Assembly: GCA_041671125.1 (NCBI GenBank)
Contig: JBAZCA010000001.1
Coordinates: 136,120 to 200,119 of the forward strand
Reading direction: 5' to 3'
DNA length: 64,000 bases
From: Patescibacteria group bacterium
Lineage (GTDB): Bacteria > Patescibacteriota > Patescibacteriia > Patescibacteriales > JBAZCA01
Part shown: in pieces, positions 20,242 to 39,564 of the stretch
Position numbering within the stretch: the first letter of the stretch is position 1
Layout: each line of letters opens with the position of its first letter
Notes under the pieces: generated by a model
Databases searched by the model: none
Seen by the model: only the letters and a program-made list of their open reading frames with translations
What the model was told of the DNA's origin: nothing
Translations under genes and position numbers: made by a program

Positions 20242-21327
20242 TTAATTGGCTTGTTTTTTGTATGACTCTTCCATAATCGCCTTATAAATTCCCCTGACCA
20301 GCCGCTCGTTCATCCTGAATTTTTTAACCTTGTCTTTAATAATTTCCTCTTCCCTTTTCTTATCAATAACCGCGAGGCCTTTTTTCTTTTTAATCCGGCC
20401 AATGGCTTTGACTTCGGCGAAACGACCGGCTAAAAGTTTAAAAATCCGGTTGTCAATTTTATTAATTGTCTCCCGCCTAAAATCCAGTTCGTCTTCTCTC
20501 TTAGCTTTCCTGATCCGGCCGTCAAGCGCTTCGCAGGCGGCCATGAATTTTTCCCGCACTGACCCGGCGTAAGGGTTAAAATTATGCATGTCATAAAATA
20601 ACTGCCAGTTGTCCGAAGTCGTATGCGGAAGGATGGAAAGTAAATCAGTATAGCCGGGAGTAAAAATTTCCTGCTCCCGCGCTCCGGCGCCGAGTAGCGC
20701 CCGGCCGACAAAATGGACGAGCCCTAAAGTATAGGCGTTCTGGCGGTCATGATTTTCAGGAGAGGTGATTATGATTTTTAAACCGAGACCAGTCAAAAAT
20801 CCCCTGATCTTTTTTAATTCTTCCGGACTAATCCGGATCGGGCAAAGGACAATCTGCAAATCTTTTAAATTCCACGACTGCTTTTCAAAACTGAATTTAG
20901 TCGTAACCGGCCCGAACTGGGGATGGGTGCCCATAATCATTACATTTTCAGGCAAATATTTTTTAAGCCATTGGCAGGGATAAACTTTAACCGAGCAGGT
21001 ATCAACGATTAACGCCCCGGGCTTAACATAATTGGCAATCTTTTTAATCACCTCTTCCGTAACCGAAATCGGAACCGTTAAAATTATTAGATCGCATCCG
21101 GCCGCTTCTTTCAGGCTGACAATTTTCGCGCCGATTTTTTTAGCTTTTAAAGTATCTCCCTGGCTGATTTTATGATCATAAACGCGAACATCTCCCCGTT
21201 TAGAAAAAACGCTCGCGGCCAGTTCGCCGAAACGCCCGAACCCGATTATAGCCACCGTTCTTCGGATGGATCTAATTTTATTTTTCTCATTCATAGCCAT
21301 TATTTCCGCGTAAAATCTGCGTCTCAT
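20242..21327 (-). CDS. tyrA: Prephenate dehydrogenase fused to a C-terminal AroQ chorismate mutase
   Basis: VAIIGFGRFG Rossmann motif and a PDH domain. The C-terminus FRRETINKIDNRIFKLLAGRFAEVKAIGRIKK...REEEII is a CM type 2 helix pattern. Confidence 0.85.
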   Translation of the reverse strand: MRRRFYAEIMAMNEKNKIRSIRRTVAIIGFGRFGELAASVFSKRGDVRVYDHKISQGDTLKAKKIGAKIVSLKEAAGCDLIILTVPISVTEEVIKKIANYVKPGALIVDTCSVKVYPCQWLKKYLPENVMIMGTHPQFGPVTTKFSFEKQSWNLKDLQIVLCPIRISPEELKKIRGFLTGLGLKIIITSPENHDRQNAYTLGLVHFVGRALLGAGAREQEIFTPGYTDLLSILPHTTSDNWQLFYDMHNFNPYAGSVREKFMAACEALDGRIRKAKREDELDFRRETINKIDNRIFKLLAGRFAEVKAIGRIKKKKGLAVIDKKREEEIIKDKVKKFRMNERLVRGIYKAIMEESYKKQAN

Positions 21328-21348
21328 GCTCCGCGGTATATCCGCGTC

Positions 21349-21930
21349 CTATCGGTCATAATTATTAACCGCCGCGATAAAGGTGGTAAAATTGAATTTT
21401 AAATCCTGAATTCCCTCTTCCGCGAGATCCAAGTCATATAATTCGGCGCAAACTTTCGGCGCGATAACCGCCGTGGTCTTAGGGATTACTTCGTCGGCTA
21501 AATCTTTGGCAGCCGTCGCCGTATCCGGATACTCGTTTAATTCAGCCTGGGGCCATTTTCTTTTTAAATACATCCGGCATTGGCGGAGCGCCTGCTGGTG
21601 CGAGGTGATGGCGTCAATTTTTTTCAGGTCCGCGCCTTTCTTCATTAAAAGGTTCATCTTAATATCAATTTCAAACATTTTTTCAATCTGGAAAATATGG
21701 CGAGCCATGGCTTCAACCGCTTCTACTACGATTCCGCCATTAGAATTCTCAATCGGAAAAATGCCGATATTTATTTTTCCCTTCCCGAGCGACCGCAAAA
21801 CATTCTCAACCGAAGTGAGATATTCCAACTCGTAATGCTCCAGCTTTTCCTCCCGGGCGTAATGTTTGGCGGCTTCTTCGGTAAAACTTCCCCGGTTTCC
21901 CGAAACGCCAATGATGATTTTAGCGGACAT
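21349..21930 (-). CDS. pheA: Prephenate dehydratase, catalytic domain only (no ACT domain)
   Basis: GVSGNRGSFTEEAA...IFPIENSNGGIV...ITSHQQALRQC are PDT motifs. 193 aa. Confidence 0.85.
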   Translation of the reverse strand: MSAKIIIGVSGNRGSFTEEAAKHYAREEKLEHYELEYLTSVENVLRSLGKGKINIGIFPIENSNGGIVVEAVEAMARHIFQIEKMFEIDIKMNLLMKKGADLKKIDAITSHQQALRQCRMYLKRKWPQAELNEYPDTATAAKDLADEVIPKTTAVIAPKVCAELYDLDLAEEGIQDLKFNFTTFIAAVNNYDR

Positions 21931-22070
21931 AAAATTAAATTTTTAATTCCTAATTTTTAATTTTTAAACAATTTCCAATGAATTAATTTCTAAATTTTTA
22001 AATTGAAAAATTCAAAATTGTTTGAAAATTAAAAATTGAAAATTGAAAATTAATAATGAATCATTAAACA
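21931..22070. repeat. Family E AT-rich long hairpin (aattttcaa/ttgaaaatt units)
   Basis: Arms aatttttaatttttaaacaatttccaatgaattaatttctaaattt and aaattgtttgaaaattaaaaattgaaaattgaaaatt. The same family occurs at 7845, 27016, 45897, 56651 and 57035. Confidence 0.7.
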
Positions 22071-22135
22071 CTCTGCTAATAATACCCGGAATGTTGAATT
22101 CAGTATATCAATTTTCCGTTAATTATCAATCCCCC

Positions 22136-22164
22136 TTGACACCAAATCGGAAAAAATGTATTAT
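22136..22164 (+). promoter_or_regulatory. Sigma70-like promoter of the aro operon leader
   Basis: TTGACA (22136-22141), 17 nt spacer, TATTAT (22159-22164). Confidence 0.55.
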
Positions 22165-22195: not shown

Positions 22196-22279
22196 ATGAA
22201 ATTCGGCCAAATCTGGTTTAGCTACTTTTATTTTTACTTTACCCTTAAAACAAGGCCGGTTTTTTGCATTAATCAATAG
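22196..22279 (+). CDS. Candidate leader peptide, Trp/Phe/Tyr-rich (27 aa)
   Basis: MKFGQIWFSYFYFYFTLKTRPVFCINQ, verified codon by codon. 10 of 27 residues are aromatic, covering all three aromatic amino acids. Confidence 0.6.
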   Translation: MKFGQIWFSYFYFYFTLKTRPVFCINQ

Positions 22280-22299: not shown

Positions 22300-22328
22300 G
22301 AACCCGGCCCAAAAGAGCCGGTTTTTTT
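22300..22328 (+). terminator. Attenuator terminator 6 nt upstream of the first aro gene
   Basis: CCGGC (22304-22308), 8 nt, GCCGG (22317-22321), then T7. CCGGCC can alternatively pair with GGCCGG at 22254-22259 inside the leader ORF. Confidence 0.5.
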
Positions 22329-22334
22329 AATTTT

Positions 22335-23126
22335 ATGGCTTCAAAAAAAGAACTCTTATCAAAAATTATCAATCCCGTTTCCGGACGGACGGTTATTGTT
22401 CCCATGGATCACGGCGTTACCGACGGACCGATTTCGGGCCTTGAAAAAATGGATGAAATCATCCGCAAAGTAAAAGAAGGCGGCGCCGACGCTATTATCA
22501 TCCACAAAGGCATTTTTAAATTATGCCGGGAAGCCATCGGCGATCTTCCGGTTCTAATCCATATCTCGGCTTCAACCGGCATGGGCGTTTCTTTAAAAAA
22601 AGTTTTAGTCGCTACAGCCCGCGAAGTTAAAAACCTCGGCGCGGCCGGAGTTTCTGTCCATTTGAATATCGGGAACGAATACGAACCGGAAATGCTCCGC
22701 GATCTCGGCATTATTTCCCGCGAATGCGAAGAGGAAGGATTGCCGCTTTTAGCCATGATGTATCCGCGCGGCATTATTGACGGCCGGATAGTCCATTACA
22801 ACGACCCCGCCCGGGTGGCGCACGCCGCCCGCCTCGCGGCCGAACTCGGAGCCGACATAGTTAAAGTCCCATACACCGGCGACGCGAAAAGTTTCGGCGA
22901 AGTGGTCAAAAGCTGTCCCGTACCGGTCGTTATCGCCGGCGGAGCCAAAGGCTCGGAAGAAGCCATGCTTTCTTCCATCCGGGATTGCGTCCGGGCCGGA
23001 GCGACCGGAGTTTCGGTCGGCCGGAACGTCTTCCAGTCCGAAGACGTCCCGGGTATGGTAAAAAAAGTCCGGGACACTGTCTATAACGCGACCCTTAATT
23101 TGTCATCTATACAGACTGTCCGATAA
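22335..23126 (+). CDS. 2-amino-3,7-dideoxy-D-threo-hept-6-ulosonate (ADH) synthase, class I aldolase family (archaeal AroA')
   Basis: DhnA/FbaB-type aldolase with IVPMDHG and the Schiff-base region ADIVKVPY. The adjacent DHQ synthase II supports the specific call. Confidence 0.8.
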   Translation: MASKKELLSKIINPVSGRTVIVPMDHGVTDGPISGLEKMDEIIRKVKEGGADAIIIHKGIFKLCREAIGDLPVLIHISASTGMGVSLKKVLVATAREVKNLGAAGVSVHLNIGNEYEPEMLRDLGIISRECEEEGLPLLAMMYPRGIIDGRIVHYNDPARVAHAARLAAELGADIVKVPYTGDAKSFGEVVKSCPVPVVIAGGAKGSEEAMLSSIRDCVRAGATGVSVGRNVFQSEDVPGMVKKVRDTVYNATLNLSSIQTVR

Positions 23127-23127: not shown

Positions 23128-23335
23128 TGTCATTCCGACCCCGCCTTTTGCGGGGGAGGAATCCCTTAAAGGTGAAAGTGGCTAGTTTAAGGGATTTCTC
23201 CCCGCCGATTCGGCGGGTCGAAATGACAAAAAAAGGAGTTGTCGGGTAGCTTGGAGAGATATAATTGAGTTGAACATATTATAAAAAAAATCTCATACGT
23301 AGCGATTAGATCTCTCGCTACGCTCGAGATGACAA
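23128..23335. repeat. Family C palindromic repeats (one full copy plus a half copy)
   Basis: tgtcattccgaccccgccttttgcggggg...ccccgccgattcggcgggtcgaaatgaca, then ...gattagatctctcgctacgctcgagatgacaaaag. The half copy supplies the ATG at 23329. Confidence 0.75.
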
Positions 23336-24351
23336 AAGATATGCAAAAAATATTCTGGTACCAGCCCCCGGTCTGGGATAAAAAATTAGTTACCGCGGCC
23401 ATTGAATCGGGCTTTTCCGCGATCTACGTCCGGCCAGAAGACATCTTAAGGACAAAAGAACTTTCCCTGGCCAAAGTCGTTTCAACCGCCGCGCCGGCTG
23501 ATTTCATCATCGGCGAAAACGTTGACGAAGTGGAAATCAAAAACAAAGAGGCTGAAGAACTGGTCGTCCGGCACCAGGGAAGAATTCCGGTTATTATAAG
23601 GAACCTTGACTGGACAATAATCCCTTTGGAAAATCTTATTTCAAAAACAACAAACTTAATCCAGCATGTCCGCGGTTATGACGAGGCTAAGCTGGCCTTT
23701 GAAACTTTGGAAAGCGGCTGTGACGGGATATTACTGGAAAGCGGCGATTTGAATGAAATAAAAAAAACAGCCACCCTGATTAAAGACGCCCAAAACGAAA
23801 AACTGAAACTCGCCCACGCTGAAATATCTTCAGTAGAACAGCTCGGTCTAGGCGACCGGGTGGTTGTTGATACTTCCTCCATATTATTTCCCGGCCAGGG
23901 CATGCTCGTCGGAGACTCTTCCAAAAGTATGTTTTTAGTATATAATGAAAACGTGGAGACTCCTTACTGCGATCCGCGTCCCTTCCGGGTTAACGCCGGC
24001 GGCGCCCACGCCTACATCCGCCTGCCCGGCGACAAAACTAAATATCTCGGAGAACTAAAAAGCGGCATGAAAGCTTTGGCCGTTGATCCGGCCGGCAACA
24101 CCGAAGAAGCTATCATCGGCCGGATAAAAATAGAAAAGCGGCCAATGCTTATTGTTCGGGCCAAAGTCGGTGAGCGAGACATGAGCCTGGTCATGCAAAA
24201 CGCCGAAACCATCCGGCTTACCGGAACTGACGGACAGCCGATTTCAGTTACAAAATTAAAACCCGGCGACAAGGTGCTGGCTTTCCTGCAGGAAGAAGGG
24301 GTTGGGAGGCATTTCGGCCAGAAAATAAAAGAAACCATAACCGAAAAATAA
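23329..24351 (+). CDS. 3-dehydroquinate synthase II (archaeal type, AroB')
   Basis: About 340 aa. The N-terminus FWYQPPVWDKKLVTAAIESGFSAIYV is typical of the DHQS-II family as I recall it. The true start may be the ATG at 23341. Confidence 0.8.
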   Translation: MTKDMQKIFWYQPPVWDKKLVTAAIESGFSAIYVRPEDILRTKELSLAKVVSTAAPADFIIGENVDEVEIKNKEAEELVVRHQGRIPVIIRNLDWTIIPLENLISKTTNLIQHVRGYDEAKLAFETLESGCDGILLESGDLNEIKKTATLIKDAQNEKLKLAHAEISSVEQLGLGDRVVVDTSSILFPGQGMLVGDSSKSMFLVYNENVETPYCDPRPFRVNAGGAHAYIRLPGDKTKYLGELKSGMKALAVDPAGNTEEAIIGRIKIEKRPMLIVRAKVGERDMSLVMQNAETIRLTGTDGQPISVTKLKPGDKVLAFLQEEGVGRHFGQKIKETITEK

Positions 24352-24446: not shown

Positions 24447-25835
24447 ATGATAAAAAACGGAAAGATCATCGTTAATAAATTCGGCGGCGGGATCATGATT
24501 GAAAAACATATCCCCTTTACCGATGAAAGGTTAAGAGAGCAGATTAAAGCCGGCTTCCGACCGGTGGTTGTCGTTTCGGCTTTAAAAGGCGTTACTGACC
24601 GGATCATCCATTTTCTCGCCGGACTAAAACATGAAGTCTGCCGCAACCAGCAGATTGGCGGCAACACCGAAAAATTTTCCATCCGCCTGGTAAGCCCTTT
24701 TGTCGCCGAGTTAAAGGAAGACCATCTAAAGCTCCTTGAGCAAGTCGGAGTATTAAGGGAGGAACGGAAAAAAGCGATGGCTGACATGGATAAAATTTTT
24801 TTCGGGCTGGAAAACGATTTAAACGCCCTCCTCCGTTTTGGATTCTTAAATGTTTTTGATGATAAGATCTCGGCCTACGGCGAAAAGCTAGCCGGGGTTT
24901 TTTTTACCGCCTACCTTAATTCCAAAGGCTTTACCGCCCGGACAATAATGGCTGAAGACATTCCGATAATGACCGATGACTCTTTCCGCGACGCCAATAT
25001 TGATTACAAAGTTTCGGAAAAAAACGCGAGAAAAAAAATCCTGAAATCCGCCGGCATCCCGGTTATCCCGGGCTTTACCGGAAAAACCGCCAACGGCAAC
25101 GTGACTACCCTTGGCCGCGGAGGAACTGATACAACCGCTTGCTTTTTAGGAGCCGCTCTCAGGGCCGACAAAATAATTTTATGGAAAGACGTGGACGGAG
25201 TATTGTCGGCCGACCCAAAAATCGTCCCTTCCGCGAAAACCGTCCCTTTTATAAGCTACGCCGAAGCCGAAGAATCCGGCAAAATAATCCACGACAAAGC
25301 CATCCAGTACGTAAAAATGTTTAAGACTCCGGCCGAAGTGGCGGCCATTTCCGATCCGGCGAAAAAAACCTTAGTCGGCCCGTCCAAAGATAAAAAAGAG
25401 GGTCCGAAGATTGTCAGCTTTAAAAAAGATCTCTCGCTTCTAATCATCACCGACGAAAAAATGAACCAACGCGGCTATCTCGCCCATGTTACCGGGCTAT
25501 TGGCCTCCCGCAAAGTAAACCTGGACACTATAAGAAATACCCGTGATAAACTGCATATTGTCGCTGAAAGCTATAACGGCCCGATTGAAGAGGCGGTTCG
25601 CGACCTAAAGGAAGAAGTGGCAAAATTAAAAATCATTCCGGTAAACATGGTTGTTTTGATTGGTAGCCTGAGCTGGGAGATGGTCAGCCGATTTAACGAT
25701 GTTCTTATAAAGCTCTGCCCCGACGCGGAACTGGGCGCTTTTCCTTACCGGAATTGCGTCCGGCTGGAAGCCGTAGTCCGAGCCGAAGACACGGAAAAAA
25801 TGATCCGGGCTTTGCATGAAGAATTTATTAAATAG
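24447..25835 (+). CDS. Aspartate kinase
   Basis: IVNKFGGG, VVVVSALKGVTD and LGRGGTDTTA amino-acid-kinase motifs, plus a C-terminal ACT-like region. Confidence 0.85.
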   Translation: MIKNGKIIVNKFGGGIMIEKHIPFTDERLREQIKAGFRPVVVVSALKGVTDRIIHFLAGLKHEVCRNQQIGGNTEKFSIRLVSPFVAELKEDHLKLLEQVGVLREERKKAMADMDKIFFGLENDLNALLRFGFLNVFDDKISAYGEKLAGVFFTAYLNSKGFTARTIMAEDIPIMTDDSFRDANIDYKVSEKNARKKILKSAGIPVIPGFTGKTANGNVTTLGRGGTDTTACFLGAALRADKIILWKDVDGVLSADPKIVPSAKTVPFISYAEAEESGKIIHDKAIQYVKMFKTPAEVAAISDPAKKTLVGPSKDKKEGPKIVSFKKDLSLLIITDEKMNQRGYLAHVTGLLASRKVNLDTIRNTRDKLHIVAESYNGPIEEAVRDLKEEVAKLKIIPVNMVVLIGSLSWEMVSRFNDVLIKLCPDAELGAFPYRNCVRLEAVVRAEDTEKMIRALHEEFIK

Positions 25836-25926: not shown

Positions 25927-27015
25927 ATGAAAAAATTTAGAGTCGGCATCCTCGGCGCGACCGGCATGGTTGGCCAAAACTACATAAGATTGCTTAATAA
26001 CCACCCCTGGTTCAAAGTTACCTACGTCGCGGCTTCGGCCAATTCGGCCGGAGTAACGTATTTTGATTCCATAATCGGCCGCTGGCAGATGGCCACCGCC
26101 GTCCCCAAAGACACAAAGTCTTTAATCGTTGAAAATGTCGCCAACATCAATAAAGCCAGGAAGCATTGTGATTTTGTTTTTTCGGCCTTTGAAATGCCGG
26201 ACAAAAACCTGGTTAAAGAAATGGAGGAAAAATACGCCGCCGCCGGAATCCCGGTCGTCTCAAACGCCTCGGCCAACCGGTTTACCGATGACGTGCCCAT
26301 GCTTATCCCGGAAATAAATCCGCACCATATTGACATCATTCCGATCCAGAAAAAAAAACGTGGCTGGAAAAAAGGTTTTATCGTCGTCAAACCCAATTGC
26401 AGTCTTCAAAGTTATATCACCCCGATTTTTTCCCTTACTAAAGCGGGCTATCCGGTTGAAAAAATATTTATCACCACCCTTCAGGCCGTATCCGGCGCCG
26501 GTTATCCGGGCGTGCCAAGCCTGGATATGATTGGCAATGTCGTGCCATTTATCCCGGGCGAAGAAGAAAAAACCGAGGAAGAACCTTTAAAAATCCTCGG
26601 GGAAATAAAGGACGGAAAATTCCAAAAGGCGGTTTATCCGACAATTTCCGCCCATTGCAACCGGGTGCCGGTGATTGACGGCCATCTCGCCTGCGTCAGC
26701 CTGAAATTCGCCGGGAAAAAACCCAGCCGGGAAAAAATCCTGAAAATCTGGAAAGAATTCAGGGCTCTTCCCCAAACCTTAAAACTGCCGATGGCGCCGG
26801 AACAGCCGATCCTTTACCGTAACGAGCATAACCGCCCCCAGCCGAGAAAAGACCGGGATCGGGAAAAAGGCATGGCCGTTACCGTCGGACGCTTAAGGGA
26901 ATGCAAAATCTTTGACTATAAATTCGCGGCTTTAAGCCATAACACGGTGCGCGGCGCGGCCGGCGGCGGAATATTAAACGCCGAATTGCTTGTGAAGAAA
27001 GGATATATAAAATAA
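25927..27015 (+). CDS. asd: Aspartate-semialdehyde dehydrogenase
   Basis: VGILGATGMVGQ, KPNCS (active-site Cys) and SAHCNRVPV motifs. Confidence 0.9.
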   Translation: MKKFRVGILGATGMVGQNYIRLLNNHPWFKVTYVAASANSAGVTYFDSIIGRWQMATAVPKDTKSLIVENVANINKARKHCDFVFSAFEMPDKNLVKEMEEKYAAAGIPVVSNASANRFTDDVPMLIPEINPHHIDIIPIQKKKRGWKKGFIVVKPNCSLQSYITPIFSLTKAGYPVEKIFITTLQAVSGAGYPGVPSLDMIGNVVPFIPGEEEKTEEEPLKILGEIKDGKFQKAVYPTISAHCNRVPVIDGHLACVSLKFAGKKPSREKILKIWKEFRALPQTLKLPMAPEQPILYRNEHNRPQPRKDRDREKGMAVTVGRLRECKIFDYKFAALSHNTVRGAAGGGILNAELLVKKGYIK

Positions 27016-27131: not shown

Positions 27132-28430
27132 ATGTCTTCAAAATCATATAAAATTCTTCCTCTCAAACATCCAATCAGTAAAACCATCACCATGCCCGGT
27201 TCTAAGAGCCTCTCTAACCGCTGCTTAGTAATGGCGGCGTTTTCGCGCGGGCAATCCGTAATCACGGGCGCGTCCGAATCGGACGACTGCCGGATTATGG
27301 TTTCCGCGCTAAAAAAATTGGGAGTTAAAATTAAAAAAAACCGAAACCGGTTGATTGTTTTTGGTAATAACGGCGAATTCCAGCCTTTCAAAGGAAAAAT
27401 AGATGTTGGCGCGGCCGGAACCGCCGCCCGTTTTCTTCTCGCTATCTGCGCTCTGGCGCCCGGAGAAATAATCCTTGACGGGACGTATCGTATGCGGCAA
27501 AGGCCAATCGGCGAACTGGTTAACGCTTTACGAAAACTCGGAGCCGGAATCCAATACCAAAGAAAAGCTAATTGCCTGCCGGTTAAAATCAGGGGTGGAA
27601 ATCTAACCGGCCGGAAAGTCAGCCTGCCCGGAAGAATCTCAAGCCAATTTTTTACTTCCCTTCTCCTGATCGCCCCGGTTTTAAAACAAGGGATTGAAAT
27701 AAGCGTTATTGGCGGACAAATTTCTAAATCTTATATAGACATGACTTTGGACGGTTTAAAAAAACACGGGGTTAGGATAAAAAACCAGGATTATAAAAAA
27801 TACATAGTCCGGCCAGATGCTCGCTACAAACCGGGTCATTACCAAGTTGAAGGCGACGCTTCAGGCGCGAGTTATTTTTTCGCCCTGGCCGCGTTAACCA
27901 AAAACCGGATCCGGATAAAAAATATTCTGCCTGATTCTTCGCAAGGCGACGCTAAATTTCCGGATCTACTAAAACGGATGGGCGCGAAAGTAATAAAAAA
28001 CCAAAAAGAAAACTGGATTGAAGTATCCGGAACCGGCCGCTTAAAAGGCATTTCCGTTAATATGGAAAACATGCCGGATACGGCTCAGACTTTAGCGATA
28101 GTGGCCGCCTTTGCCAAAGACAAAACTAAAATCACCGGGCTTTCCACTCTAAGACATAAAGAAACCGACCGCCTTTCAGCGCTAAAGAATGAACTGAAAA
28201 AAATGGGCGTCAGGTCTGAAATTACCGCTAATTCCATAACGATTCACGGCGGGCGACCGGGCAGCGCGATAATTGATACTTATGGTGATCACCGCATGGC
28301 CATGGCTTTCGCGATCGCTGGCTCGCGGATTCCGGACTTAGCGATTAAAGACCCGGCCGTAGTGTCAAAATCATTTCCGGAATTCTGGTCACTATTAAAA
28401 AGTATTGGTGTTAAAACAACGTCATCCTGA
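27132..28430 (+). CDS. aroA: 3-phosphoshikimate 1-carboxyvinyltransferase (EPSP synthase)
   Basis: PGSKSLSNR, GAAGTAARFL and HRMAMAFAIAG motifs. The last codons ACG TCA TCC TGA lie in the family C repeat. Confidence 0.9.
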   Translation: MSSKSYKILPLKHPISKTITMPGSKSLSNRCLVMAAFSRGQSVITGASESDDCRIMVSALKKLGVKIKKNRNRLIVFGNNGEFQPFKGKIDVGAAGTAARFLLAICALAPGEIILDGTYRMRQRPIGELVNALRKLGAGIQYQRKANCLPVKIRGGNLTGRKVSLPGRISSQFFTSLLLIAPVLKQGIEISVIGGQISKSYIDMTLDGLKKHGVRIKNQDYKKYIVRPDARYKPGHYQVEGDASGASYFFALAALTKNRIRIKNILPDSSQGDAKFPDLLKRMGAKVIKNQKENWIEVSGTGRLKGISVNMENMPDTAQTLAIVAAFAKDKTKITGLSTLRHKETDRLSALKNELKKMGVRSEITANSITIHGGRPGSAIIDTYGDHRMAMAFAIAGSRIPDLAIKDPAVVSKSFPEFWSLLKSIGVKTTSS

Positions 28431-28520
28431 GCGAAGTGGAACGTAGTGAAGGATCTCGTTAAAAACAGTAAGCGTCGCGAAGACGGGATTCTTCCCCCGC
28501 AAATGCGGGGTCAGAATGAC
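28421..28520. repeat. Family C palindromic repeat overlapping the aroA stop
   Basis: gtcatcctgagcgaagtggaacgtagtgaaggatctcg...gggattcttcccccgcaaatgcggggtcagaatgac. Confidence 0.8.
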
Positions 28521-28533
28521 GAAAAGAGAATAT

Positions 28534-30038: not shown

Positions 30039-30048
30039 TCTTATAAAT

Positions 30049-32020: not shown

Positions 32021-32050
32021 CTTGACACCAATTCCCCTTTTTGCTATAAA
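32021..32050 (+). promoter_or_regulatory. Sigma70-like promoter of the trp T-box leader
   Basis: TTGACA (32021-32026), 18 nt spacer, TATAAA (32045-32050). Confidence 0.55.
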
Positions 32051-32059: not shown

Positions 32060-32330
32060 TCATTTACAGAAATAAAGTCTAGCCGGATCCCTTGGAATTC
32101 CCGAGGGACTGGGTCCGGTAGTCATGCCTGATACAGTATAGGCATGAAAGGCGGCTTTTGCGTTAGTGAAAGCCCGGCTTCCTCCGTAACCACAGGATAA
32201 CCAGTTTCCAGGCATGGAGCTGGTGAAAGCGATCCGCTTCTTCGGCGGGTAAAAAAGGTGGCACCGCGGGATAACCTCTCGTCCTTTTATCTAAATTTTA
32301 TGTTTGGATAAAAAGATGAGAGGTTTTTTT
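32060..32330 (+). promoter_or_regulatory. T-box riboswitch leader (predicted tRNA-Trp responsive)
   Basis: aaaaaaGGTGGCACCGCGGGataaCCTCTCGTCC (32251-32284) matches the conserved T-box sequence. Terminator: cctctcgtcc...gatgagagg followed by T7, ending at 32330. Candidate UGG specifier at 32093-32095 (UGGA) or 32110-32112. Confidence 0.8.
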
Positions 32331-32630
32331 AATATCTACAAATCAACGAATTTACAACAAATCTACGAATATAGAACTTACGCGTTTATGCGTAAATACC
32401 CCCTTTGTCATTCCGGAAGCCGTTTGGCTATCCGGAATCCAGGATTAGAAGCTTTAACTAAATTTTCAGGATTAAAGGCATTATTACCTTTAAACCCTGG
32501 ATTCCGGCTCTCCGTCTCGATGATTCGGGACTCCGGCCGGAATGACAAAGTGAATTTGTTGGTTAAACGCACAAGTCTTGGAATAAATAAAATTTACATA
32601 TTTGTAAATTCGTCGTTGATTTGTGGGCGC
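32331..32630. repeat. Triple-nested palindromic composite between the T-box and trpE
   Basis: Outer arms caaatcaacgaatttacaa / ttgtaaattcgtcgttgatttg. Middle arms acttacgcgttt / aaacgcacaagt. Inner family C core tgtcattccgg...ccggaatgaca. Confidence 0.75.
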
Positions 32631-32640
32631 CCAAATAACT

Positions 32641-34053
32641 ATGCTTCCTAAAATATTATTAAATAACAAAAAACCGACTTACGTTAAATTCGCCGAGGAC
32701 TTAGACTTCTTTAAGCTGTTTAAAATTATTGAACGGGTTTTTGACAACTGTTTTATCCTTGAATCCCTCGGTGAAGAGGGCGACCGTTCGCGTTATCACG
32801 TCATTGGTTTTGACCCGGAAATGATCTTGTCGGCGCGCGGTAATGAATTAAAATGCCATCGCGTAGAGACGAGGCATGCCTCGTCTCTAACCGGCGCGCC
32901 TAAACCGCGGGTATCTGTCCATCAAACCAAAAATCCCTATTACGCCCTGCGCCAAATCGTTCCTAAAGACATAATCTCGCGCCAATATTCCGGCGGTCTT
33001 ATCGGCTATATCGCTTATGAGGCTATGAATTATTTTGAACCGGCGATAAATTTAAAACCTCATCCTGATTTTGACCAGTTTAAATTCGGCGTTTATACCG
33101 ACGGCCTGGTTTACGATAAAATGACCGGCGAGGCGTTTTATTTTTACTACGATAACGACCGCTCGGCGCTATTAAAAGAAATCGCCTTGGCCGGAAAAAA
33201 TATCGGTTTAAAATCCAAACCCCGGGTTAAATTCATCCGCGACACAAAAACAGAAAAAGAGCATGAAAAAATGGTAAAAAGGATAAAAAAAGATATCGTG
33301 GACGGCAAAATCTTCCAGTGCGTCGCCGGTTTTAAAAGCGAATTTAAGCTCAGCGGTCCGGACATCTTGATTTACGAAAGGCTCCGGACGATAAATCCCT
33401 CGCCGCACATGTTTTATTTAAAATTCGGCGCTGAAAAAATCATCGGCGCGAGTCCCGAGCTCCTTTTTCGCCTGCGCGAGGGCGAGATGGAAACTTTTCC
33501 TTTGGCCGGAACCGCGGCCCGGGGAAAAAACGCCGATGAAGACCAGAAGCTCGGACGCCGGCTTTTATCCGACCCGAAAGAAATTGCCGAGCATTCCATG
33601 TTAATTGACCTCCATCGGAATGACATCGGCCGGGTCGCCAAATTCGGGACGGTTAAAGTCCGAAACGCGATGACCCTGAAAAAATTCAGCCACGTCCAGC
33701 ATATCTCTTCCGAAGTGGCTGGCGCGATTAAAAAAAGCGAAGACATGTTCTCCACTTTAGCCGCTAATTTTCCGGCCGGCACTTTAAGCGGCGCGCCTAA
33801 AATTGAAGCTATAAAAATAATCGCCCGTGAAGAAAGGCGGGCGCGGGGTCCTTACGGCGGCGCCGTCGGCCATTTCGGCTTTAATGGCGAATGCGCTTTT
33901 GCCATCCCCATCCGCTCGCTTTTTATTTCGGGAAAAAAAGCCTTTACCCAGACCGGCGGCGGGATTGTTTATGATTCTACACCCGCCAAAGAATACAGTG
34001 AAATTATAAATAAGTTAGCGGCCATGAAAAAAGTACTAGAAAAATTTGAATAA
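32641..34053 (+). CDS. trpE: Anthranilate synthase component I
   Basis: SPELLFR, LAGTAARG, DPKEIAEHSMLIDL and GTLSGAPK motifs. Contains a perfect 26 bp palindrome at 32864-32889. Confidence 0.9.
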   Translation: MLPKILLNNKKPTYVKFAEDLDFFKLFKIIERVFDNCFILESLGEEGDRSRYHVIGFDPEMILSARGNELKCHRVETRHASSLTGAPKPRVSVHQTKNPYYALRQIVPKDIISRQYSGGLIGYIAYEAMNYFEPAINLKPHPDFDQFKFGVYTDGLVYDKMTGEAFYFYYDNDRSALLKEIALAGKNIGLKSKPRVKFIRDTKTEKEHEKMVKRIKKDIVDGKIFQCVAGFKSEFKLSGPDILIYERLRTINPSPHMFYLKFGAEKIIGASPELLFRLREGEMETFPLAGTAARGKNADEDQKLGRRLLSDPKEIAEHSMLIDLHRNDIGRVAKFGTVKVRNAMTLKKFSHVQHISSEVAGAIKKSEDMFSTLAANFPAGTLSGAPKIEAIKIIAREERRARGPYGGAVGHFGFNGECAFAIPIRSLFISGKKAFTQTGGGIVYDSTPAKEYSEIINKLAAMKKVLEKFE

Positions 34054-34157
34054 CCCGCGAATCAACAAATCAACAACAAATCAACAAATTCTAAATATTA
34101 AAGTTTATCGATATTCGTAGATTCGTGAATATATTCGTTGATTTGTGGGTTAATTTT

Positions 34158-34769
34158 ATGAAAATTCTAATTATAGATAACTACGACTCCTTCACCTATA
34201 ACCTCTACCAGTATATCGGGGAAATTTTATCGTCCGACGGGCGGCCGTTTGAGCTTATCGTCAAACGAAACAACGAGATAACGGCCAAAGAAATTATTAA
34301 AGCCGGTTTTGATAAAATAGTCATCTCTCCCGGGCCGGGCGAACCCGCTGATCCGGCCTATTTTGGGGTATGCGCCCGCGTTATAACCGACATCGGAAAA
34401 AAGATCCCTGTCTTAGGCGTTTGTCTCGGCATGCAGGGCATCGCCCATTACTGCGGCGGAAAAGTCGTCAAAGCTAAACTGCCTATGCATGGAAAAACCA
34501 GCCGGATAACCCATAACGCCAAAGGGTTATTTAAAGGCCTGCCCCAAAATCTTGAAGTCATGCGCTACCATTCTTTAGTCGCTGATCCGGATTCCCTTCC
34601 CGATTGCCTTGAAGTTATCGCCCGGGCGGCTGACACGGGAGAAATTATGGGGCTTAAGCATAAAAAATATCCAATCTCGGGAGTGCAATTCCATCCGGAA
34701 TCATTCGCCACCGAAGGCGGGAAAATCCTTTTAAAGAATTTTTTACGTAATAAACCATCCGCAAACTGA
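34158..34769 (+). CDS. trpG: Anthranilate synthase component II (glutamine amidotransferase)
   Basis: ILIIDNYDSFTYNLYQY, GVCLGMQ (catalytic Cys) and GVQFHPES. Confidence 0.9.
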   Translation: MKILIIDNYDSFTYNLYQYIGEILSSDGRPFELIVKRNNEITAKEIIKAGFDKIVISPGPGEPADPAYFGVCARVITDIGKKIPVLGVCLGMQGIAHYCGGKVVKAKLPMHGKTSRITHNAKGLFKGLPQNLEVMRYHSLVADPDSLPDCLEVIARAADTGEIMGLKHKKYPISGVQFHPESFATEGGKILLKNFLRNKPSAN

Positions 34770-34886: not shown

Positions 34887-35921
34887 ATGCAAATTTCAAA
34901 AATTATCGCCAAACTGAAAAATCTTAAAAATCTCTCTACCGAAGAATCTTACGCTCTGCAAAACGAGATTATCAACGGCAAAGCGAGTAAAGAAGCGATA
35001 ATGGAGATTTTTCGGCTGTTTGAAAAAAAAGAAATGACTGACGAAGAATTAACCGGAATTTTAAAAGCCACCCGGGAAAAAATGGTGAGGGTGGCGGTTT
35101 CCTTTCCCTGCCTGGATAATTGCGGAACCGGCGGAGACGGCTTTAATACTTTTAATATTTCCACTGTTTCGGCCGTAGTCTGCGCCGCCGCCGGTATTCC
35201 GGTCGCGAAACACGGCAACCGGGCCGCCTCCAGTAAGTGCGGATCGGCGGACGTGCTTGAAAAACTGGGGGTAAAAATTAACCTGGACGCCGGACAGGCG
35301 AAAAATTGCTTTCTGTCAGCCGGCATAGTATTTATGTTCGCTCCGAATTTCCACCCGGCCTTAAAGTTCGTTAAAGAAGCCCGCTTTGAATACGGAAAAA
35401 AAACTTATTTTAATATCTTAGGGCCGATGTTAAACCCGGCTGGCGCCGCTTATCAGCTGATCGGGTTATCCGATGCTTCTAAAACCAGCCTGATCGGAAA
35501 AACCCTGATCGCGTCCGGCTCAAAAAGAGTGATGATTATCCGGGGAGACGAAGGACTGGACGAAATAAGCGTTGAGAATGACACCCTGATTAATGACTTT
35601 AAAACCAATGATGATGGCGCCGATTTTTCGCTAAAACAGTTTAAAATCAATCCCCGCGATTTCGGCTTAAACACGCATCCTTTAAATGAAATCAGAGGCG
35701 GAGATCCGACCGAAAGCGCGAAAATATTTCTGGACATTTTAAAAAATGAGGCGGGCGCCGCCCGGATTGACGCGGTTCTCCTTAACTCAGCCGCCGGAGC
35801 GCTTACTTTCGGTCGGGTCAATAGCTTTGAAGAAGGAATAGAGCTCGCTAGAGAGATGATCGCCTCCGGAAAAGCCCTGAGAAAACTGAAAGAATTCATA
35901 AAAATATCAAACAGCTTATGA
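34887..35921 (+). CDS. trpD: Anthranilate phosphoribosyltransferase
   Basis: DNCGTGGDGFNTFNIST, AKHGNRAASSKCGSADVLE and NILGPMLNP motifs. Confidence 0.9.
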   Translation: MQISKIIAKLKNLKNLSTEESYALQNEIINGKASKEAIMEIFRLFEKKEMTDEELTGILKATREKMVRVAVSFPCLDNCGTGGDGFNTFNISTVSAVVCAAAGIPVAKHGNRAASSKCGSADVLEKLGVKINLDAGQAKNCFLSAGIVFMFAPNFHPALKFVKEARFEYGKKTYFNILGPMLNPAGAAYQLIGLSDASKTSLIGKTLIASGSKRVMIIRGDEGLDEISVENDTLINDFKTNDDGADFSLKQFKINPRDFGLNTHPLNEIRGGDPTESAKIFLDILKNEAGAARIDAVLLNSAAGALTFGRVNSFEEGIELAREMIASGKALRKLKEFIKISNSL

Positions 35922-36736
35922 ACATGCTTTACCGAAAAACCGGTACAATTCTAGATAAAATCTGCGACAATAAAATTTTAGAAGTGAAAGAAAGGATGAA
36001 AAAAACCGGCCTGGAAGATCTAAAAAAAATAATCAGCGCCGAAAATTTCATAAAAAGGGATTTTAGCGGGGCGCTGAAAAAATCCGGGCTGACGCTAATC
36101 GCGGAAATAAAAAATTCATCACCATCCTTGAGCGGTCGGCTTTTTCGGGACGATTTTAACCCGGCCGAAATAGCTAAAATTTACGAGAAGCGCGGCGCCA
36201 GCGCGATTTCCGTAATTACGGATGAAAAATTTTTCAAAGGAAAACTGGAGTTTATCCCGGCAGTCCGTTCGGTTTCCAGCCTGCCAATTTTAAGGAAAGA
36301 CTTTATCCTTTCCGCCTACCAGCTTTACGAAGCCAAAGCTTACGGCGCTGACGCGGTGCTTTTGATGGCTTCCATCCTGAACAAAACCCGGTTAATGGAA
36401 TTACATAGTCTGGCTAATCAATTAAACTTGGACGTTTTACTGGAAGTCCACGATGAAGATGAACTTAAAACGGCTCTGGAATGCTCTCCGAAAATAATCG
36501 GCGTCAATAACCGCGACCTAAAAACCATGAAGATAGATTTGGATAATTTCGTCCATCTGTCTCCTCTGATTCCCGGCGGTATAATTAAGGTGGCTGAATC
36601 AGGAATCAGCTCAAAGAAGGCTGTTCAAAAAATTAGAACAGCCGGGGCTGACGCGATCTTAGTCGGCACTTCGCTCATGAAAGCCAAAGACATCGGGCAG
36701 GCGATTGATGAACTAATGGCTGGCGATAAATATTAA
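35918..36736 (+). CDS. trpC: Indole-3-glycerol phosphate synthase
   Basis: LIAEIKNSSPS, RKDFI, LEVH and GVNNRDL motifs. The start overlaps the trpD stop (ATGA). Confidence 0.9.
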   Translation: MNMLYRKTGTILDKICDNKILEVKERMKKTGLEDLKKIISAENFIKRDFSGALKKSGLTLIAEIKNSSPSLSGRLFRDDFNPAEIAKIYEKRGASAISVITDEKFFKGKLEFIPAVRSVSSLPILRKDFILSAYQLYEAKAYGADAVLLMASILNKTRLMELHSLANQLNLDVLLEVHDEDELKTALECSPKIIGVNNRDLKTMKIDLDNFVHLSPLIPGGIIKVAESGISSKKAVQKIRTAGADAILVGTSLMKAKDIGQAIDELMAGDKY

Positions 36737-36755: not shown

Positions 36756-37523
36756 ATGAAAATAAAAATTTGCGGAATTACAAATCTGGAAGACGCGAAA
36801 AACGCCATTAAACTCGGTGCTGATTACCTTGGTTTTATTGTTGATTTTCCCAAAAGCCCAAGGAGTGTTTCCATGGAAAAATTTATTCAACTGGCATCAG
36901 CAATAAAAAAATGTCAATCGTCAATCCGCCCGGACGAACATCCCCACCAGAATGACCTTGTCGGGCTGGCGTTCGGACGGGTCGTCAATCCGCCCGGACG
37001 AACATCCGTTCGGACGGGTCGTCAATCGTCAATCTCTATCGTCGCCGTAACCGTGGATATGGCTGAAGACAAGTTAAGAGAATTATTGGCGGAAAATCTA
37101 ATTGATGTCTTACAATTCCATGGCCATGAAACCCCGGAATTTTGCGACCAATTCAGAAACAAAGTTGAAGTTTGGAGGTCGTTTAAGATACAGACGACAG
37201 ACGACAGACGACAGACAATAGAAATTCTGGAAAAATTCAAAGGAAAAATTGACCGCTCTTTACTGGACGCCGCGAGCGCCGAAGACAAGGCTAATAACAG
37301 AAACAACCAATTCAAAGATTTTAAGCTGTTTAAAGATTTACAGGCCAGAGGTTATCCGCTCGTCCTCGCTGGCGGGATTAACCCGGATAATGTAGAATTA
37401 TATATAAATAAGCTAAATCCAGAAATAATTGATGTCGCGAGCGGTATAGAAGAGCGTCCAGGAAAAAAGAGTCCGGAGAAGATGAAAAAATTTATGGAAA
37501 AAATAAAACATACAACCCTATGA
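36756..37523 (+). CDS. trpF: Phosphoribosylanthranilate isomerase with in-frame repeat insertions
   Basis: KICGITNLEDA, GADYLGFI and LAGGINPDNV motifs. At 255 aa it is longer than the roughly 205 aa I expect. The excess maps to repeat DNA at 36911-37040 and the cagacga tandem at about 37190-37220. Confidence 0.85.
   Translation: MKIKICGITNLEDAKNAIKLGADYLGFIVDFPKSPRSVSMEKFIQLASAIKKCQSSIRPDEHPHQNDLVGLAFGRVVNPPGRTSVRTGRQSSISIVAVTVDMAEDKLRELLAENLIDVLQFHGHETPEFCDQFRNKVEVWRSFKIQTTDDRRQTIEILEKFKGKIDRSLLDAASAEDKANNRNNQFKDFKLFKDLQARGYPLVLAGGINPDNVELYINKLNPEIIDVASGIEERPGKKSPEKMKKFMEKIKHTTL
36911..37040. repeat. gtcaatcgtcaatcc / ccgcccggacgaacatcc repeat block inside trpF
   Basis: Direct copies of (gtc)gtcaatccgcccggacgaacatcc at 36913 and 36981, plus the hairpin ccggacgaacatccgttcggacgg. 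The cgtcaatcgtaaatc motif also flanks the tRNAs (4660, 9510) and occurs at 54985. Confidence 0.75.
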
Positions 37524-38767
37524 ACATCTTTATTAAAACCAAATACGACGCAGACAGTCGCGGGCATTTTGGAAAACTCGGCGGAAGGTATGTTCCGGAA
37601 ATGCTAATTCCGGCTCTGGAAGAGTTAGAAACTGCTTACGAAGACGCTAAGCGCGACCCGCGTTTTTTAGCCGATCTCATGGATCTTTATAAAAATTACG
37701 ACGGCCGTCCCACCCCGCTTTATTACGCGGAAAACCTTACTAAAAGACTGGGCGGCGCGAAAATTTTTATTAAAAACGAAGGGCAGAATTTAACCGGCGC
37801 TCATAAAATTAACCATTCCCTCGGTCAGGCATTGCTCGCGAGGCGCATGGGTAAAAAGCGCTTAATCGCCGAAACCGGGGCCGGCCAGCACGGCCTTGCC
37901 ACCGCCACGGTCGCCGCTAAGTTCGGATTTAAATGCGCGGTTTATATGGGCAAGGTGGATTATCACCGCCAGCGGCCGAATGTTTTTTGGATGGAGCAGC
38001 TGGGCGCCGAAGTCATCCCGGTTCTGCACGGAACTCAGCGCTTAAAAGACGCCGTAACCGCCACGCTCCAGGATTGGATAGAAAACGTGGATGATACCTA
38101 TTATCTTTTAGGCTCGGCTTTAGGGCCCCATCCCTATCCTTCCATGGTCCGGGATTTCCAGACCATTGTCGGACTGGAAGTAAAAAAACAGCTAAAAGAA
38201 AATTACGGCGTTAACAGACCGGACTGCGTCATCGCCTGCGTCGGCGGCGGTTCAAACGCCATCGGAATTTTTAATCCTTATTTGGATGACCGGAAGGTTA
38301 AGCTCATCGGCGTTGAAGCCGGCGGCCGGGGAATAAAAAAAATCGGCGACCACGCCACCCGGCTCCAGAAAAACCAAAAGCTCGGAGTGGTTGAAGGCTA
38401 TAAATCATACTTTATTCAGGACGGGGACGGCCAGATCCAAAACACCCATAGCATTTCCGCCGGGCTGGATTATTCGGGAATCGGACCCGAACACGGACTT
38501 TTGTATTTAAAAGGCCGGGTGGAATATAAATACGCGACAGACAAGGAAGTTTTAGCCGCCTTTAAACTGCTCGCCCGGACCGAAGGCATAATTCCGGCTC
38601 TGGAATCAGCCCACGCCGTTGCTTACGCCATAAAACTCGCCCCCAAGCTCAGTAAAAATAAAACCATTGTCATAAATCTCTCCGGCCGCGGCGACAAAGA
38701 TATCTTTATTGTGGCCGAAGCGCTGAAAGATGAAAGATGGAAGGAGTATTTAAAAAGTAAAATATGA
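37520..38767 (+). CDS. trpB: Tryptophan synthase beta chain
   Basis: GKLGGRYVPE, GAHKINH (PLP lysine), ETGAGQHG and GGGSNAIG. Confidence 0.95.
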   Translation: MNIFIKTKYDADSRGHFGKLGGRYVPEMLIPALEELETAYEDAKRDPRFLADLMDLYKNYDGRPTPLYYAENLTKRLGGAKIFIKNEGQNLTGAHKINHSLGQALLARRMGKKRLIAETGAGQHGLATATVAAKFGFKCAVYMGKVDYHRQRPNVFWMEQLGAEVIPVLHGTQRLKDAVTATLQDWIENVDDTYYLLGSALGPHPYPSMVRDFQTIVGLEVKKQLKENYGVNRPDCVIACVGGGSNAIGIFNPYLDDRKVKLIGVEAGGRGIKKIGDHATRLQKNQKLGVVEGYKSYFIQDGDGQIQNTHSISAGLDYSGIGPEHGLLYLKGRVEYKYATDKEVLAAFKLLARTEGIIPALESAHAVAYAIKLAPKLSKNKTIVINLSGRGDKDIFIVAEALKDERWKEYLKSKI

Positions 38768-39564
38768 ACAAAATCAATTCACAACTCAATAAAATCAAAC
38801 AGCAAAATCGCTTGGGAATCATGACCCATATCGTTATCGGCTATCCGAACCTTAAAGAAAGTCTCTCGCTCGCTAAACTCATGGCCGGCTTGGGCGTTGA
38901 CTTTATTGAATTACAGCTTCCCTTTTCCGACCCCATGGCTGACGGCCCGACTATCATGGCCGCGAATAAAGCCGCGCTGGATAATGGGACGCGGGTAAGG
39001 GATTGTTTTAAAGCCATGAAAGAATTATCCGAACAGGTTAATATTCCCCTGATTTTCATGGGTTATTTTAATACGGTTCACAGCTACGGCGCGGAAAAAT
39101 TCTGTTGCGACGCGCAAAAGGCCGGAGCGAGCGGCCTCATTTTTCCCGATATTCCTTTGGATGAAGAAAAAGAAGAGGGCTATATAGCGGCGGCGAAAAA
39201 AAATAACCTCATTCCCATCCGCCTCCTTTCTCCGGCTTCCACTCCGGAAAGGATGAAAAAAAATTCCAAAGTCGCCGACGGCTTTCTCTATTATGTCGGC
39301 CGCAAAGGCACGACCGGAGTTAAAGCCGAACTGGACAGCAAATTAAATATACATTTAAAAGAGCTGAAAAAATATTTTAAGATCCCAATTGCTGTCGGCT
39401 TCGGCATTTCTAAACCCGAACACATCAAATCTCTAAAAGGCAAAGCTGCTATAGCCGTTATCGGTTCGGCCTGCTTAAACGCCTATGACAAAGCGCCCAA
39501 AGGCGAAGGGCTTAAAGCGGTAGAAAACTTCCTCGCTCCGCTTATTAAAGAAGCTGGAAAATAA
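38764..39564 (+). CDS. trpA: Tryptophan synthase alpha chain
   Basis: DFIELQLPFSDPMADGPTI and VGFGIS motifs. The start overlaps the trpB stop. Confidence 0.95.
   Translation: MNKINSQLNKIKQQNRLGIMTHIVIGYPNLKESLSLAKLMAGLGVDFIELQLPFSDPMADGPTIMAANKAALDNGTRVRDCFKAMKELSEQVNIPLIFMGYFNTVHSYGAEKFCCDAQKAGASGLIFPDIPLDEEKEEGYIAAAKKNNLIPIRLLSPASTPERMKKNSKVADGFLYYVGRKGTTGVKAELDSKLNIHLKELKKYFKIPIAVGFGISKPEHIKSLKGKAAIAVIGSACLNAYDKAPKGEGLKAVENFLAPLIKEAGK

Follow-up and report, generated by a model that had tools for sequence, protein, structure and literature searches.

An aromatic amino-acid supraoperon was described in the bacterium Desulfovibrio vulgaris in 2005, in which aro and trp genes are joined and aroA' and aroB' come first, behind an attenuator (PMC1173090). 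The two genes encode ADH synthase and 3-dehydroquinate synthase II (DHQS-II). The chemistry of these enzymes was reported by White in 2004 for Methanocaldococcus jannaschii, with DKFP (6-deoxy-5-ketofructose-1-phosphate) as the sugar partner, as described in PMC4162585. In the accounts that we draw on, the aroA'/aroB' route is characterized biochemically mainly in this one methanogen. In haloarchaea, there is dispute over what its substrates are. According to PMC8672522, most amino-acid pathways are missing from bacteria of the candidate phyla radiation (CPR), or Patescibacteria, and in many cases the pentose-phosphate pathway is incomplete. Here we analyze a 64-kb stretch of contig JBAZCA010000001.1, the whole of which is referred to as the window. 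It very probably carries an aromatic amino-acid locus of a Parcubacteria-like CPR bacterium, with an ADH-synthase/DHQS-II entry, aspartate kinase (ask) and asd genes embedded in the entry block, an attenuator and a Trp T-box. The Desulfovibrio supraoperon shows that the general kind is already known, and the novelty lies in the CPR host and the embedded ask-asd pair. That precedent had escaped the preliminary description of this DNA, as had the attenuator and a surrounding super-cluster of about 45 kb.

The host assignment is based on two proteins. The closest relatives of the window DHQS-II, with identities from 94% down to about 50%, carry the labels Patescibacteria, Parcubacteria, Moranbacteria, Pacebacteria, Roizmanbacteria and Gracilibacteria. 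The replicative helicase DnaB of the window (4949-6340) is 98-99% identical to proteins of metagenome-assembled genomes (MAGs) labelled 'Patescibacteria group bacterium', and it shares 73-79% identity with proteins from Falkowbacteria and Parcubacteria. Because DnaB also matches Patescibacteria MAGs, placing the host in the CPR does not depend on the ancestry of the cluster. The reduced-genome host suspected earlier is thus supported. TGA is a stop codon in the window, and the genetic code is therefore the standard one.

Entry enzymes and the four-gene block

Genes were identified from a map of open reading frames (ORFs) and profile searches against Pfam and NCBIfam. Four genes on the plus strand open the locus: the aldolase gene aroA' (22335-23126), the DHQS-II gene aroB' (23329-24351), ask (24447-25835) and asd (25927-27015). 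The aldolase matches PF01791 over its full length (187.8 bits), which indicates the DhnA/DeoC class I aldolase fold. It scores 291.7 bits on the ADH-synthase subfamily model NF005556 (cutoff 241). Compared to solved structures, it is closest to MJ0400 of M. jannaschii (PDB 2qjg, 241.9 bits), and the best fructose-1,6-bisphosphate (FBP) aldolase, 1ojx, and LsrF reach 126 and 116 bits. Asp33, Tyr153 and Lys184 of MJ0400, with positions counted along the alignment, are all conserved in the window aldolase. We take Lys184, the Schiff-base residue, and Tyr153 to be catalytic. Asp33 is the proton acceptor (PMC4162585). The product of the gene directly downstream matches PF01959 (370.9 bits, residues 15-340), and no relative with a solved structure is detectable by its sequence. 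The profiles and the catalytic residues support the identification of the first two products as a putative ADH-synthase-type aldolase and DHQS-II, in agreement with the preliminary description. In line with that description, the scan of the window ORFs, which covered nearly all of at least 150 aa, detected neither a DAHP-synthase nor a DHQ_synthase (AroB) domain.

The aldolase could also be a glycolytic or gluconeogenic class I FBP aldolase, with the true pathway entry elsewhere in the genome. The DhnA/DeoC class I superfamily would accommodate such an enzyme, and the cutoff of the ADH-synthase equivalog is narrowly missed. On the archaeal class I FBP-aldolase model, however, the protein scores 147.9 bits with a cutoff of 430, compared to about 291 on the ADH-synthase models, and MJ0400 scores twice any solved FBP aldolase. 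In addition, an aldolase gene is located directly upstream of the DHQS-II gene in most of the 84 loci first fetched. This makes an FBP aldolase extremely unlikely. The preliminary description had named it, together with a 23329 product that is not a DHQS-II, as what would overturn the proposed entry, and the scores of 147.9 bits on one model and 370.9 bits on the other point away from both.

By homology, 3-dehydroquinate would be made by the Methanocaldococcus-type route. The ADH-synthase-type aldolase would join L-aspartate semialdehyde (ASA) to a keto-hexose phosphate fragment, and DHQS-II would deaminate and cyclize the product to dehydroquinate. The aroD, aroE, aroK, aroA and aroC products would convert dehydroquinate to chorismate. 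From chorismate, the chorismate-mutase domain of TyrA together with PheA and TyrA would lead to the keto-acids of Phe and Tyr, and TrpEGDCFBA would lead to Trp. Encoded directly after DHQS-II, ask and asd could supply the ASA.

The ask product is a monofunctional aspartate kinase (TIGR00657, 224.5 bits, cutoff 208.7) with a weak ACT-domain match. Asd is of the archaeal/eukaryal type (TIGR00978 asd_EA, 382.8 bits, cutoff 301.2). The best solved relatives of both are from M. jannaschii, its aspartokinase (107 bits) and 1ys4 (301.7 bits), respectively. To compare gene orders, the window proteins were mapped onto 84 loci fetched around DHQS-II homologues, and L085, L128, L129 and L130 were added later. 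The aldolase, DHQS-II, ask and asd genes occur in this fixed order in all ten lineages examined from one CPR clade (the window, L001, L003, L004, L005, L006/L085, L008, L128, L129 and L130). The DHQS-II proteins of the block-bearing lineages are 57-80% identical to that of the window. The block is found in none of the 76 other fetched loci, which belong to Desulfobacterota, Nitrospirota, Aquificota, archaea and others. Among these, the aldolase/DHQS-II pair is directly followed by pheA, aroD, aroE or aroA. In a rough neighbour-joining tree, an analysis proposed in the preliminary description, the DHQS-II copies then in hand from the module-bearing CPR lineages form one clade.

The asd slot holds the archaeal type (TIGR00978) in the window, L006 and L008, and the bacterial type (TIGR01296) in L004 and L005. 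Two asd types in one slot suggest that the function was retained there while the gene was swapped. In L004, a Gracilibacteria locus, the four-gene block stands alone, without other aro genes, behind a Phe/Tyr-rich leader. Together these comparisons support a functional tie, as judged from gene order and regulation, of ask and asd to the aldolase and DHQS-II. No DKFP-forming enzyme linked to the module was found in any of the ten lineages. The aldolase may therefore take a common glycolytic sugar phosphate directly.

A related pair of enzymes suggests another use of the block. It could be a GriI/GriH-type module, which makes 3-amino-4-hydroxybenzoate from ASA and dihydroxyacetone phosphate as part of a secondary metabolite pathway, and ask and asd would then supply the precursor. 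The BagB/BagC homologues also use ASA, and both window proteins match those models. The matches are far weaker than those to the primary-pathway models: 185.1 bits on BagB_FevI (cutoff 500) versus 292 for the aldolase, and 152.2 bits on BagC_FevH (cutoff 750) versus 391 for DHQS-II. Moreover, the operon goes on with aroA, aroK-aroE, aroD and aroC, which need dehydroquinate, the cluster contains no other source of dehydroquinate, and its predicted regulation is through Phe, Tyr and Trp codons. We give a secondary-metabolite module next to no chance.

Several variations were seen around the block in other lineages. In L129, an aminotransferase gene follows asd. L003 alone has an ORF of 798 aa with a weak HrpA-helicase-like match between ask and asd (12691-15087 of that locus). 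L085 (4480-9183) and L006 carry further aro fusions, an aroD-aroE-aroK triple (631 aa) and aroA-aroC (788 aa). They also carry a second Phe-rich leader-like ORF with a terminator after asd, and no gene is obvious downstream of this ORF on its strand.

Orphan DHQS-II genes, without an adjoining aldolase, ask or asd gene, are found in L009-L014, L016-L018, L020 and L086. Searches of the Gracilibacteria-type loci L009-L020 by tblastn with an alternative genetic code revealed no hidden adjacent ask, asd or aldolase gene, so that these DHQS-II copies are genuinely orphan. In L009-L014 and L086, which are of this type, recurrent neighbors encode a metallophosphoesterase, a Lactamase_B_3 protein, an ATP-grasp protein, a PALP enzyme and a Mur ligase, and L086 adds a LysW-like zinc ribbon. 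The DHQS-II copies of L009-L014 are a sister branch to the module-bearing clade in the rough tree.

A predicted attenuator ahead of the block

A promoter-like sequence, TTGACA-17-TATTAT, is located at 22136-22164 (plus strand) and has 11 of 12 consensus matches. By eye, such a site also precedes the leader of L001, a relative whose DHQS-II is 80% identical to that of the window. The promoter is followed by a leader ORF of 27 codons (22196-22279, plus strand), MKFGQIWFSYFYFYFTLKTRPVFCINQ, which starts MKFGQIWFSYFYFYF. Nine of its first 15 residues are Phe, Tyr or Trp. A terminator follows on the same strand, composed of a CCGGC/GCCGG hairpin (22304-22321) and a run of seven U (22322-22328) that ends 6 nt before the ATG of the aldolase gene. 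Four GC-rich segments of this region are mutually complementary: CGGCC (22204-22208), GGCCGG (22254-22259), CCGGCC (22304-22309) and GCCGG (22317-22321). The 5' arm of the terminator can pair alternatively with GGCCGG, which lies within the leader ORF.

An aromatic-rich leader ORF with a terminator is present at this position in all ten module-bearing lineages. The L001 leader has the same peptide core as the window. In the other eight lineages, the mini-ORFs show no sequence similarity to that of the window, and each is followed by a hairpin and a U-run. Examples are KKYFWFYFF, VNFYFYFF, LFFSFFVFYYFFNF, NNQFFFYSFF, SISFYFYFY, VNFFSFYFF, NYFNYFGF and IWFSLYYF. Analogous pairing of the terminator 5' arm with the end of the leader ORF is found in most lineages (L001, L005, L008, L026, L060, L082, L083 and L084). 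A strict scan for leaders with at least six aromatic residues in ten plus a terminator, over 2.67 Mb on both strands, gave 18 hits. Fourteen of them immediately precede the aldolase gene or the gene that opens its aro operon, at positions that account for less than 1% of the sequence scanned. These 14 include Desulfobacterota and Deferribacteres loci. The leader upstream of the aldolase gene has no match in Rfam.

From these features we infer that a classical leader-peptide (ribosome-mediated) attenuator probably lies ahead of the aldolase gene. A ribosome stalled on the Phe/Tyr/Trp run would leave GGCCGG free to pair with the terminator 5' arm, and transcription would go on. When charged aromatic tRNAs are sufficient, the terminator would form just ahead of the aldolase gene. 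Since this places ask and asd within a unit controlled by Phe, Tyr and Trp codons, the attenuator is the strongest in-silico evidence for their role in aromatic synthesis. The suggestion in the preliminary description that the pathway accounts for ask and asd in an aro operon gains from the conserved block, the exchange of asd types in its slot and this leader.

The position of ask and asd could instead reflect only the way in which this genome packs its amino-acid pathways, their real role being in the aspartate family (Thr, Lys/diaminopimelate (DAP) and Met). On either side of the aro-trp genes lies a super-cluster with serA, serC, serB, cysK and thrC as well as ilv and leu genes, and thrC is 3.5 kb upstream of the tyrA-to-trpA region. 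Packing does not account for the place of ask-asd after DHQS-II, which is fixed in ten lineages whatever the neighbors, or for the L004 block, which is alone behind its leader. The block is also predicted to be transcribed from the aromatic-codon attenuator, and hom, thrB and dap genes are absent among the scanned window ORFs. We therefore consider packing alone rather unlikely. The aspartate-family and aromatic roles of ask and asd are compatible with each other.

On a bolder reading, ask and asd were captured into an aromatic-specific entry module in one CPR clade, and ASA supply is governed by the charging of Phe, Tyr and Trp tRNAs. Taken with the ser, cys, ilv, leu and trp genes nearby, this would point to a Parcubacteria-like lineage with the capacity to make nine or more amino acids and with much less dependence on a host than is assumed for CPR bacteria. 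Its aldolase may use a common glycolytic sugar phosphate directly, a chemistry unlike that of M. jannaschii. We put this full scenario forward tentatively, as one possibility.

Several points weigh against the main interpretation of the locus, an ADH-synthase/DHQS-II entry with ASA supply under an attenuator. The aldolase scores 290.7 bits on the ADH-synthase equivalog TIGR01949, just under the cutoff of 299.45, and DHQS-II scores 391.5 bits on NF002627, just under the cutoff of 392. The Halobacterium enzyme showed no detected activity with ASA and DKFP, and fructose-1,6-bisphosphate was not excluded (PMC4162585), so the sugar partner is uncertain outside methanogens. The window is 64 kb of a genome, and DAHP synthase and AroB could be encoded elsewhere. 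ask and asd could serve the synthesis of threonine (thrC, 15423-16781), lysine or DAP as well. The neighbour-joining tree of DHQS-II is rough. The minimum-energy fold of the L004 leader lacks the antiterminator, and the whole aldolase leader of the window folds no better than shuffled sequence (z = -0.15). Because of this, the case for the attenuator is built on the ORF, the local hairpins and the conservation across lineages.

Other regulatory sequences were noted nearby. Between pheA and the aro leader, the region of the divergent promoters (21960-22060) is very AT-rich and contains three overlapping TTGAAAAT-type repeats with 7-nt spacing, which may be a regulator binding site. Two further candidate leader attenuators on the minus strand are each followed by a terminator-like hairpin. 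One, MIKKLPKNLDIVVVVSLIIPT (48153-48218), is upstream of an ilvA-like gene, and the other, MTRINATTIKTIMMMTGIIMTG (18547-18657), is upstream of the leuA-like remnant/thrC region.

The trp unit and the surroundings of the cluster

The trp genes would have a promoter of their own, followed by a Trp (UGG) T-box in which Stem I is reduced and which includes a terminator. The promoter-like sequence, TTGACA-17-TATAAA, is located at 32022-32050 (plus strand), and its -10 region is kept in L001. The leader follows at 32082-32330 on the same strand. Its Stem I is a two-tier hairpin of about 38 nt (32082-32119) with a 3' bulge, CUGGG (32109-32113), that contains UGG (32110-32112). The leader also contains Stem II, a IIA/B element and Stem III. 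The T-box sequence GGUGGCACCGCG (32257-32268; AGGUGGCACCGCG from 32256) provides the UGGN bulge of the antiterminator, and the terminator with its U-run occupies 32275-32330.

A T-box had been reported at this site in the preliminary description. The T-box sequence and the terminator bear this out, and the element is conserved in L001 and 41 further loci. The fit to the canonical family is incomplete. Rfam RF00230 matches 32136-32289 with 48.7 bits (E = 9e-8 over 47 kb), below the gathering score of 93. In the alignment, 88 positions of Stem I are deleted, and the leader lacks an extended Stem I with its distal tRNA-elbow platform. The equivalent gap in L001 matches the same model at 36.9 bits. 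Between the window and L001, the UGG of the Stem I bulge is invariant and the stems differ by compensatory changes. The T-box leader folds much better than shuffled sequences (z = -6.2).

The 41 loci (L087-L127) came from an exact-pattern scan of metagenomes for the core of this leader. The family shares CGGCUUCCUCCGUAA ... GGUGGYACCGCG and a UGGG bulge. Of 42 leaders, that of the window included, 39 have N-UGG-G at the corresponding place, and the bulges of the three trpE leaders read CUGGG, CUGGG and AUGGG. At least 17 leaders of the family precede trpE, trpB, trpB2 (stand-alone copies included), trpD-like genes or trpG, and one (L102) precedes tyrS. Stem II, a further stem and the antiterminator/terminator show many compensatory changes, and the helices covary across 36 leaders. 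We conclude, on this comparative evidence, that the leader probably functions as a T-box does, with specificity for Trp and with Stem I reduced. Other members of the family are located ahead of a polyprenyl synthase gene, ahead of genes of unassigned function, or ahead of small CxxC ORFs, rich in Cys, that lie upstream of nusA.

Three further candidate features were set aside. The base of the T-box bulge that pairs with the discriminator was considered as a second marker of specificity. It gives UGGC in the three trpE leaders and UGGU in most trpB2 leaders, and because of this split it is uninformative. A pairing of the Stem I UGGGCC with the GGUGGC segment of the T-box, proposed by RNAalifold, was treated as an artefact. 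The approximately 300 nt from the T-box terminator to trpE were rejected as a second regulatory element, as they contain a repeated insertion. This palindromic insertion (32372-32577) has nested inverted repeats and resembles a miniature inverted-repeat transposable element (MITE). The repeat is about 215 nt long and has a second copy in the window (19196-19409; 76% identity). It is also found in L103 and not in L001.

The remaining genes, like the first four, were found at the positions and in the order given by the preliminary description, with pheA and tyrA divergent from the others. On the minus strand, tyrA (20242-21327) encodes prephenate dehydrogenase (PDH_N, residues 42-186, 68 bits) fused to a C-terminal type II chorismate mutase (CM_2, residues 285-359, 56 bits), a fusion also found in L001. 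pheA (21349-21930, minus strand) encodes 193 residues with a prephenate dehydratase domain (PDT, residues 7-186, 148.7 bits), and Pfam revealed neither ACT nor any other second domain beside it. On the plus strand, asd is followed by aroA (EPSP synthase, 27132-28430, TIGR01356 443.8 bits), an aroK-aroE fusion (28516-29856; SKI 15-169, Shikimate_dh_N 180-264, SDH_C 412-442), aroD (type I 3-dehydroquinate dehydratase, 29968-30717, DHquinase_I 201 bits) and aroC (chorismate synthase, 30935-32011, Pfam 474.8 bits). Both fusions and the ACT-less pheA had been recognized correctly. The trp genes, assigned with Pfam, follow on the same strand: trpE (32623-34053), trpG (34125-34769), trpD (34887-35921), trpC (35918-36736), trpF (36756-37523), trpB (37520-38767) and trpA (38764-39564).

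These genes form at least three units: the divergent pheA and tyrA-chorismate mutase pair; the promoter, attenuator and genes from the aldolase to aroC; and the promoter, T-box and trpEGDCFBA. The single plus-strand run of the preliminary description is better divided into at least two regulated units, from the attenuator to aroC and from the T-box to trpA. A terminator was looked for between aroC and the trp promoter and none was found, so read-through from aro to trp is possible. The cluster was also called self-sufficient, which goes too far, since it encodes no source of the sugar partner (DKFP) and no aromatic aminotransferase.

The view that the cluster is transferable, or even a recently acquired mobile island, was suggested by its compact organization. 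The archaeal-type asd, the MITE-like repeats, and a large serine recombinase gene (58148-59827) with a low-GC stretch at 56-64 kb are in line with an island. The comparison of composition and codon usage proposed in the preliminary description points the other way. In GC content, GC content at third codon positions (GC3) and codon usage, the entry and aro-trp genes correlate at 0.86-0.93 with the housekeeping genes of the window, and at 0.91-0.95 with its other amino-acid genes. The sole outlier is the 56-64 kb end (GC about 0.38-0.43, different codon usage). The recombinase is more than 18 kb away from the cluster, past the ilv and leu genes. Synteny of the cluster is kept in a relative at about 80% protein identity, and the DHQS-II copies of module-bearing CPR lineages fall in one clade. 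We saw no support for a recent transfer of the aro-trp cluster, and consider an island quite improbable.

The 56000-64000 end itself may be an integrated element. In addition to the recombinase gene, it contains ndk, a response regulator gene, a weak phage replisome-organizer-like ORF and genes for metallo-beta-lactamase-fold proteins. A full-length LOOT RNA (Rfam RF03000) is located at 62870-62997 on the minus strand (79.5 bits, cutoff 46.4).

The aro-trp genes are enclosed by an amino-acid biosynthesis super-cluster of about 45 kb (9696-53942). Its upstream side contains a serB-like gene, serC, serA, cysK and thrC. Its downstream side contains ilvC, ilvB, ilvD, ilvE, an ilvA-like gene, a leuCD fusion, leuB and a leuA/cimA-like gene. 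A PALP (threonine-dehydratase-like) enzyme with a C-terminal LeuA allosteric domain is encoded at 46074-47936. LeuC is fused to LeuD (48379-50394), and LeuB (50446-52056) has an N-terminal DUF559 endonuclease-like domain. A lone LeuA_dimer domain at 16975-17391 is the remnant of a leuA-like gene, the L001 copy of which is intact.

Comparison with known systems

A CPR lineage with regulated aromatic, branched-chain, serine and cysteine pathways qualifies the picture of these bacteria as poor in biosynthesis. Such lineages are candidates for less host-dependent growth or cultivation. If ask and asd are indeed under an aromatic-codon attenuator, this would be independent genomic evidence for ASA as the substrate of the pathway. 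The four-gene block is a compact gene set for reconstitution, and the small operons make the question of the sugar partner testable.

Among T-boxes, short-Stem-I forms are represented by those of actinobacterial ileS. The window leader shares with RF00230 riboswitches the T-box sequence with its UGGN bulge, the antiterminator/terminator switch, the IIA/B element and an S-turn-like loop in Stem II. In both, a purine comes after the specifier codon next to the basal helix. Unlike RF00230 riboswitches, it has a short two-tier Stem I without the elbow platform, and its score is about half the Rfam cutoff. Its predicted output is transcription termination, which distinguishes it from the ileS forms.

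The aldolase leader resembles the enterobacterial pheA (pheL) and trp attenuators. Both have a short ORF in which codons for the regulated amino acids form a run, competing hairpins, and a terminator with a U-run. In the window, however, the codon run is mixed (Phe, Tyr and Trp), the host is a CPR bacterium, and the controlled genes include ask and asd. In addition, the 5' segment of the antiterminator is located inside the ORF, 18-25 nt ahead of the stop codon, unlike in the enterobacterial leaders.

GriI/GriH (BagB/BagC), an aldolase and a cyclase, are homologues of the window pair and consume ASA too. The window pair differs in its far lower scores on their profiles, and in a context and predicted regulation that are those of primary aromatic biosynthesis. 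M. jannaschii MJ0400 and MJ1249 represent both enzyme families of the window, with Asp33, Tyr153 and Lys184 in common and ASA as the amino-acid-derived precursor, and the window ask and asd products are closest to the enzymes of this organism among solved structures. The window host is bacterial, in contrast, and the fetched archaeal loci have no ask or asd beside the pair. The DKFP-forming step of M. jannaschii (MJ1585, methylglyoxal) has no identified counterpart in the window.

As far as the literature was searched, with incomplete coverage, there is no earlier description of the embedded pair of ask and asd, of its confinement to one CPR clade or of the CPR host. The closest system is the Desulfovibrio supraoperon. 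It is likewise bacterial, begins with the ADH-synthase and DHQS-II genes, has an attenuator ahead of them and is joined to a seven-gene trp operon. Its host reduces sulfate, is free-living and has full biosynthesis, whereas the window host belongs to the CPR. The Desulfovibrio supraoperon lacks ask and asd, has a different gene order and contains pheA and tyrA within the operon, whereas these two are divergent in the window. Where the window has a T-box, at the junction of aro and trp, none appears in the gene listing of the Desulfovibrio operon.

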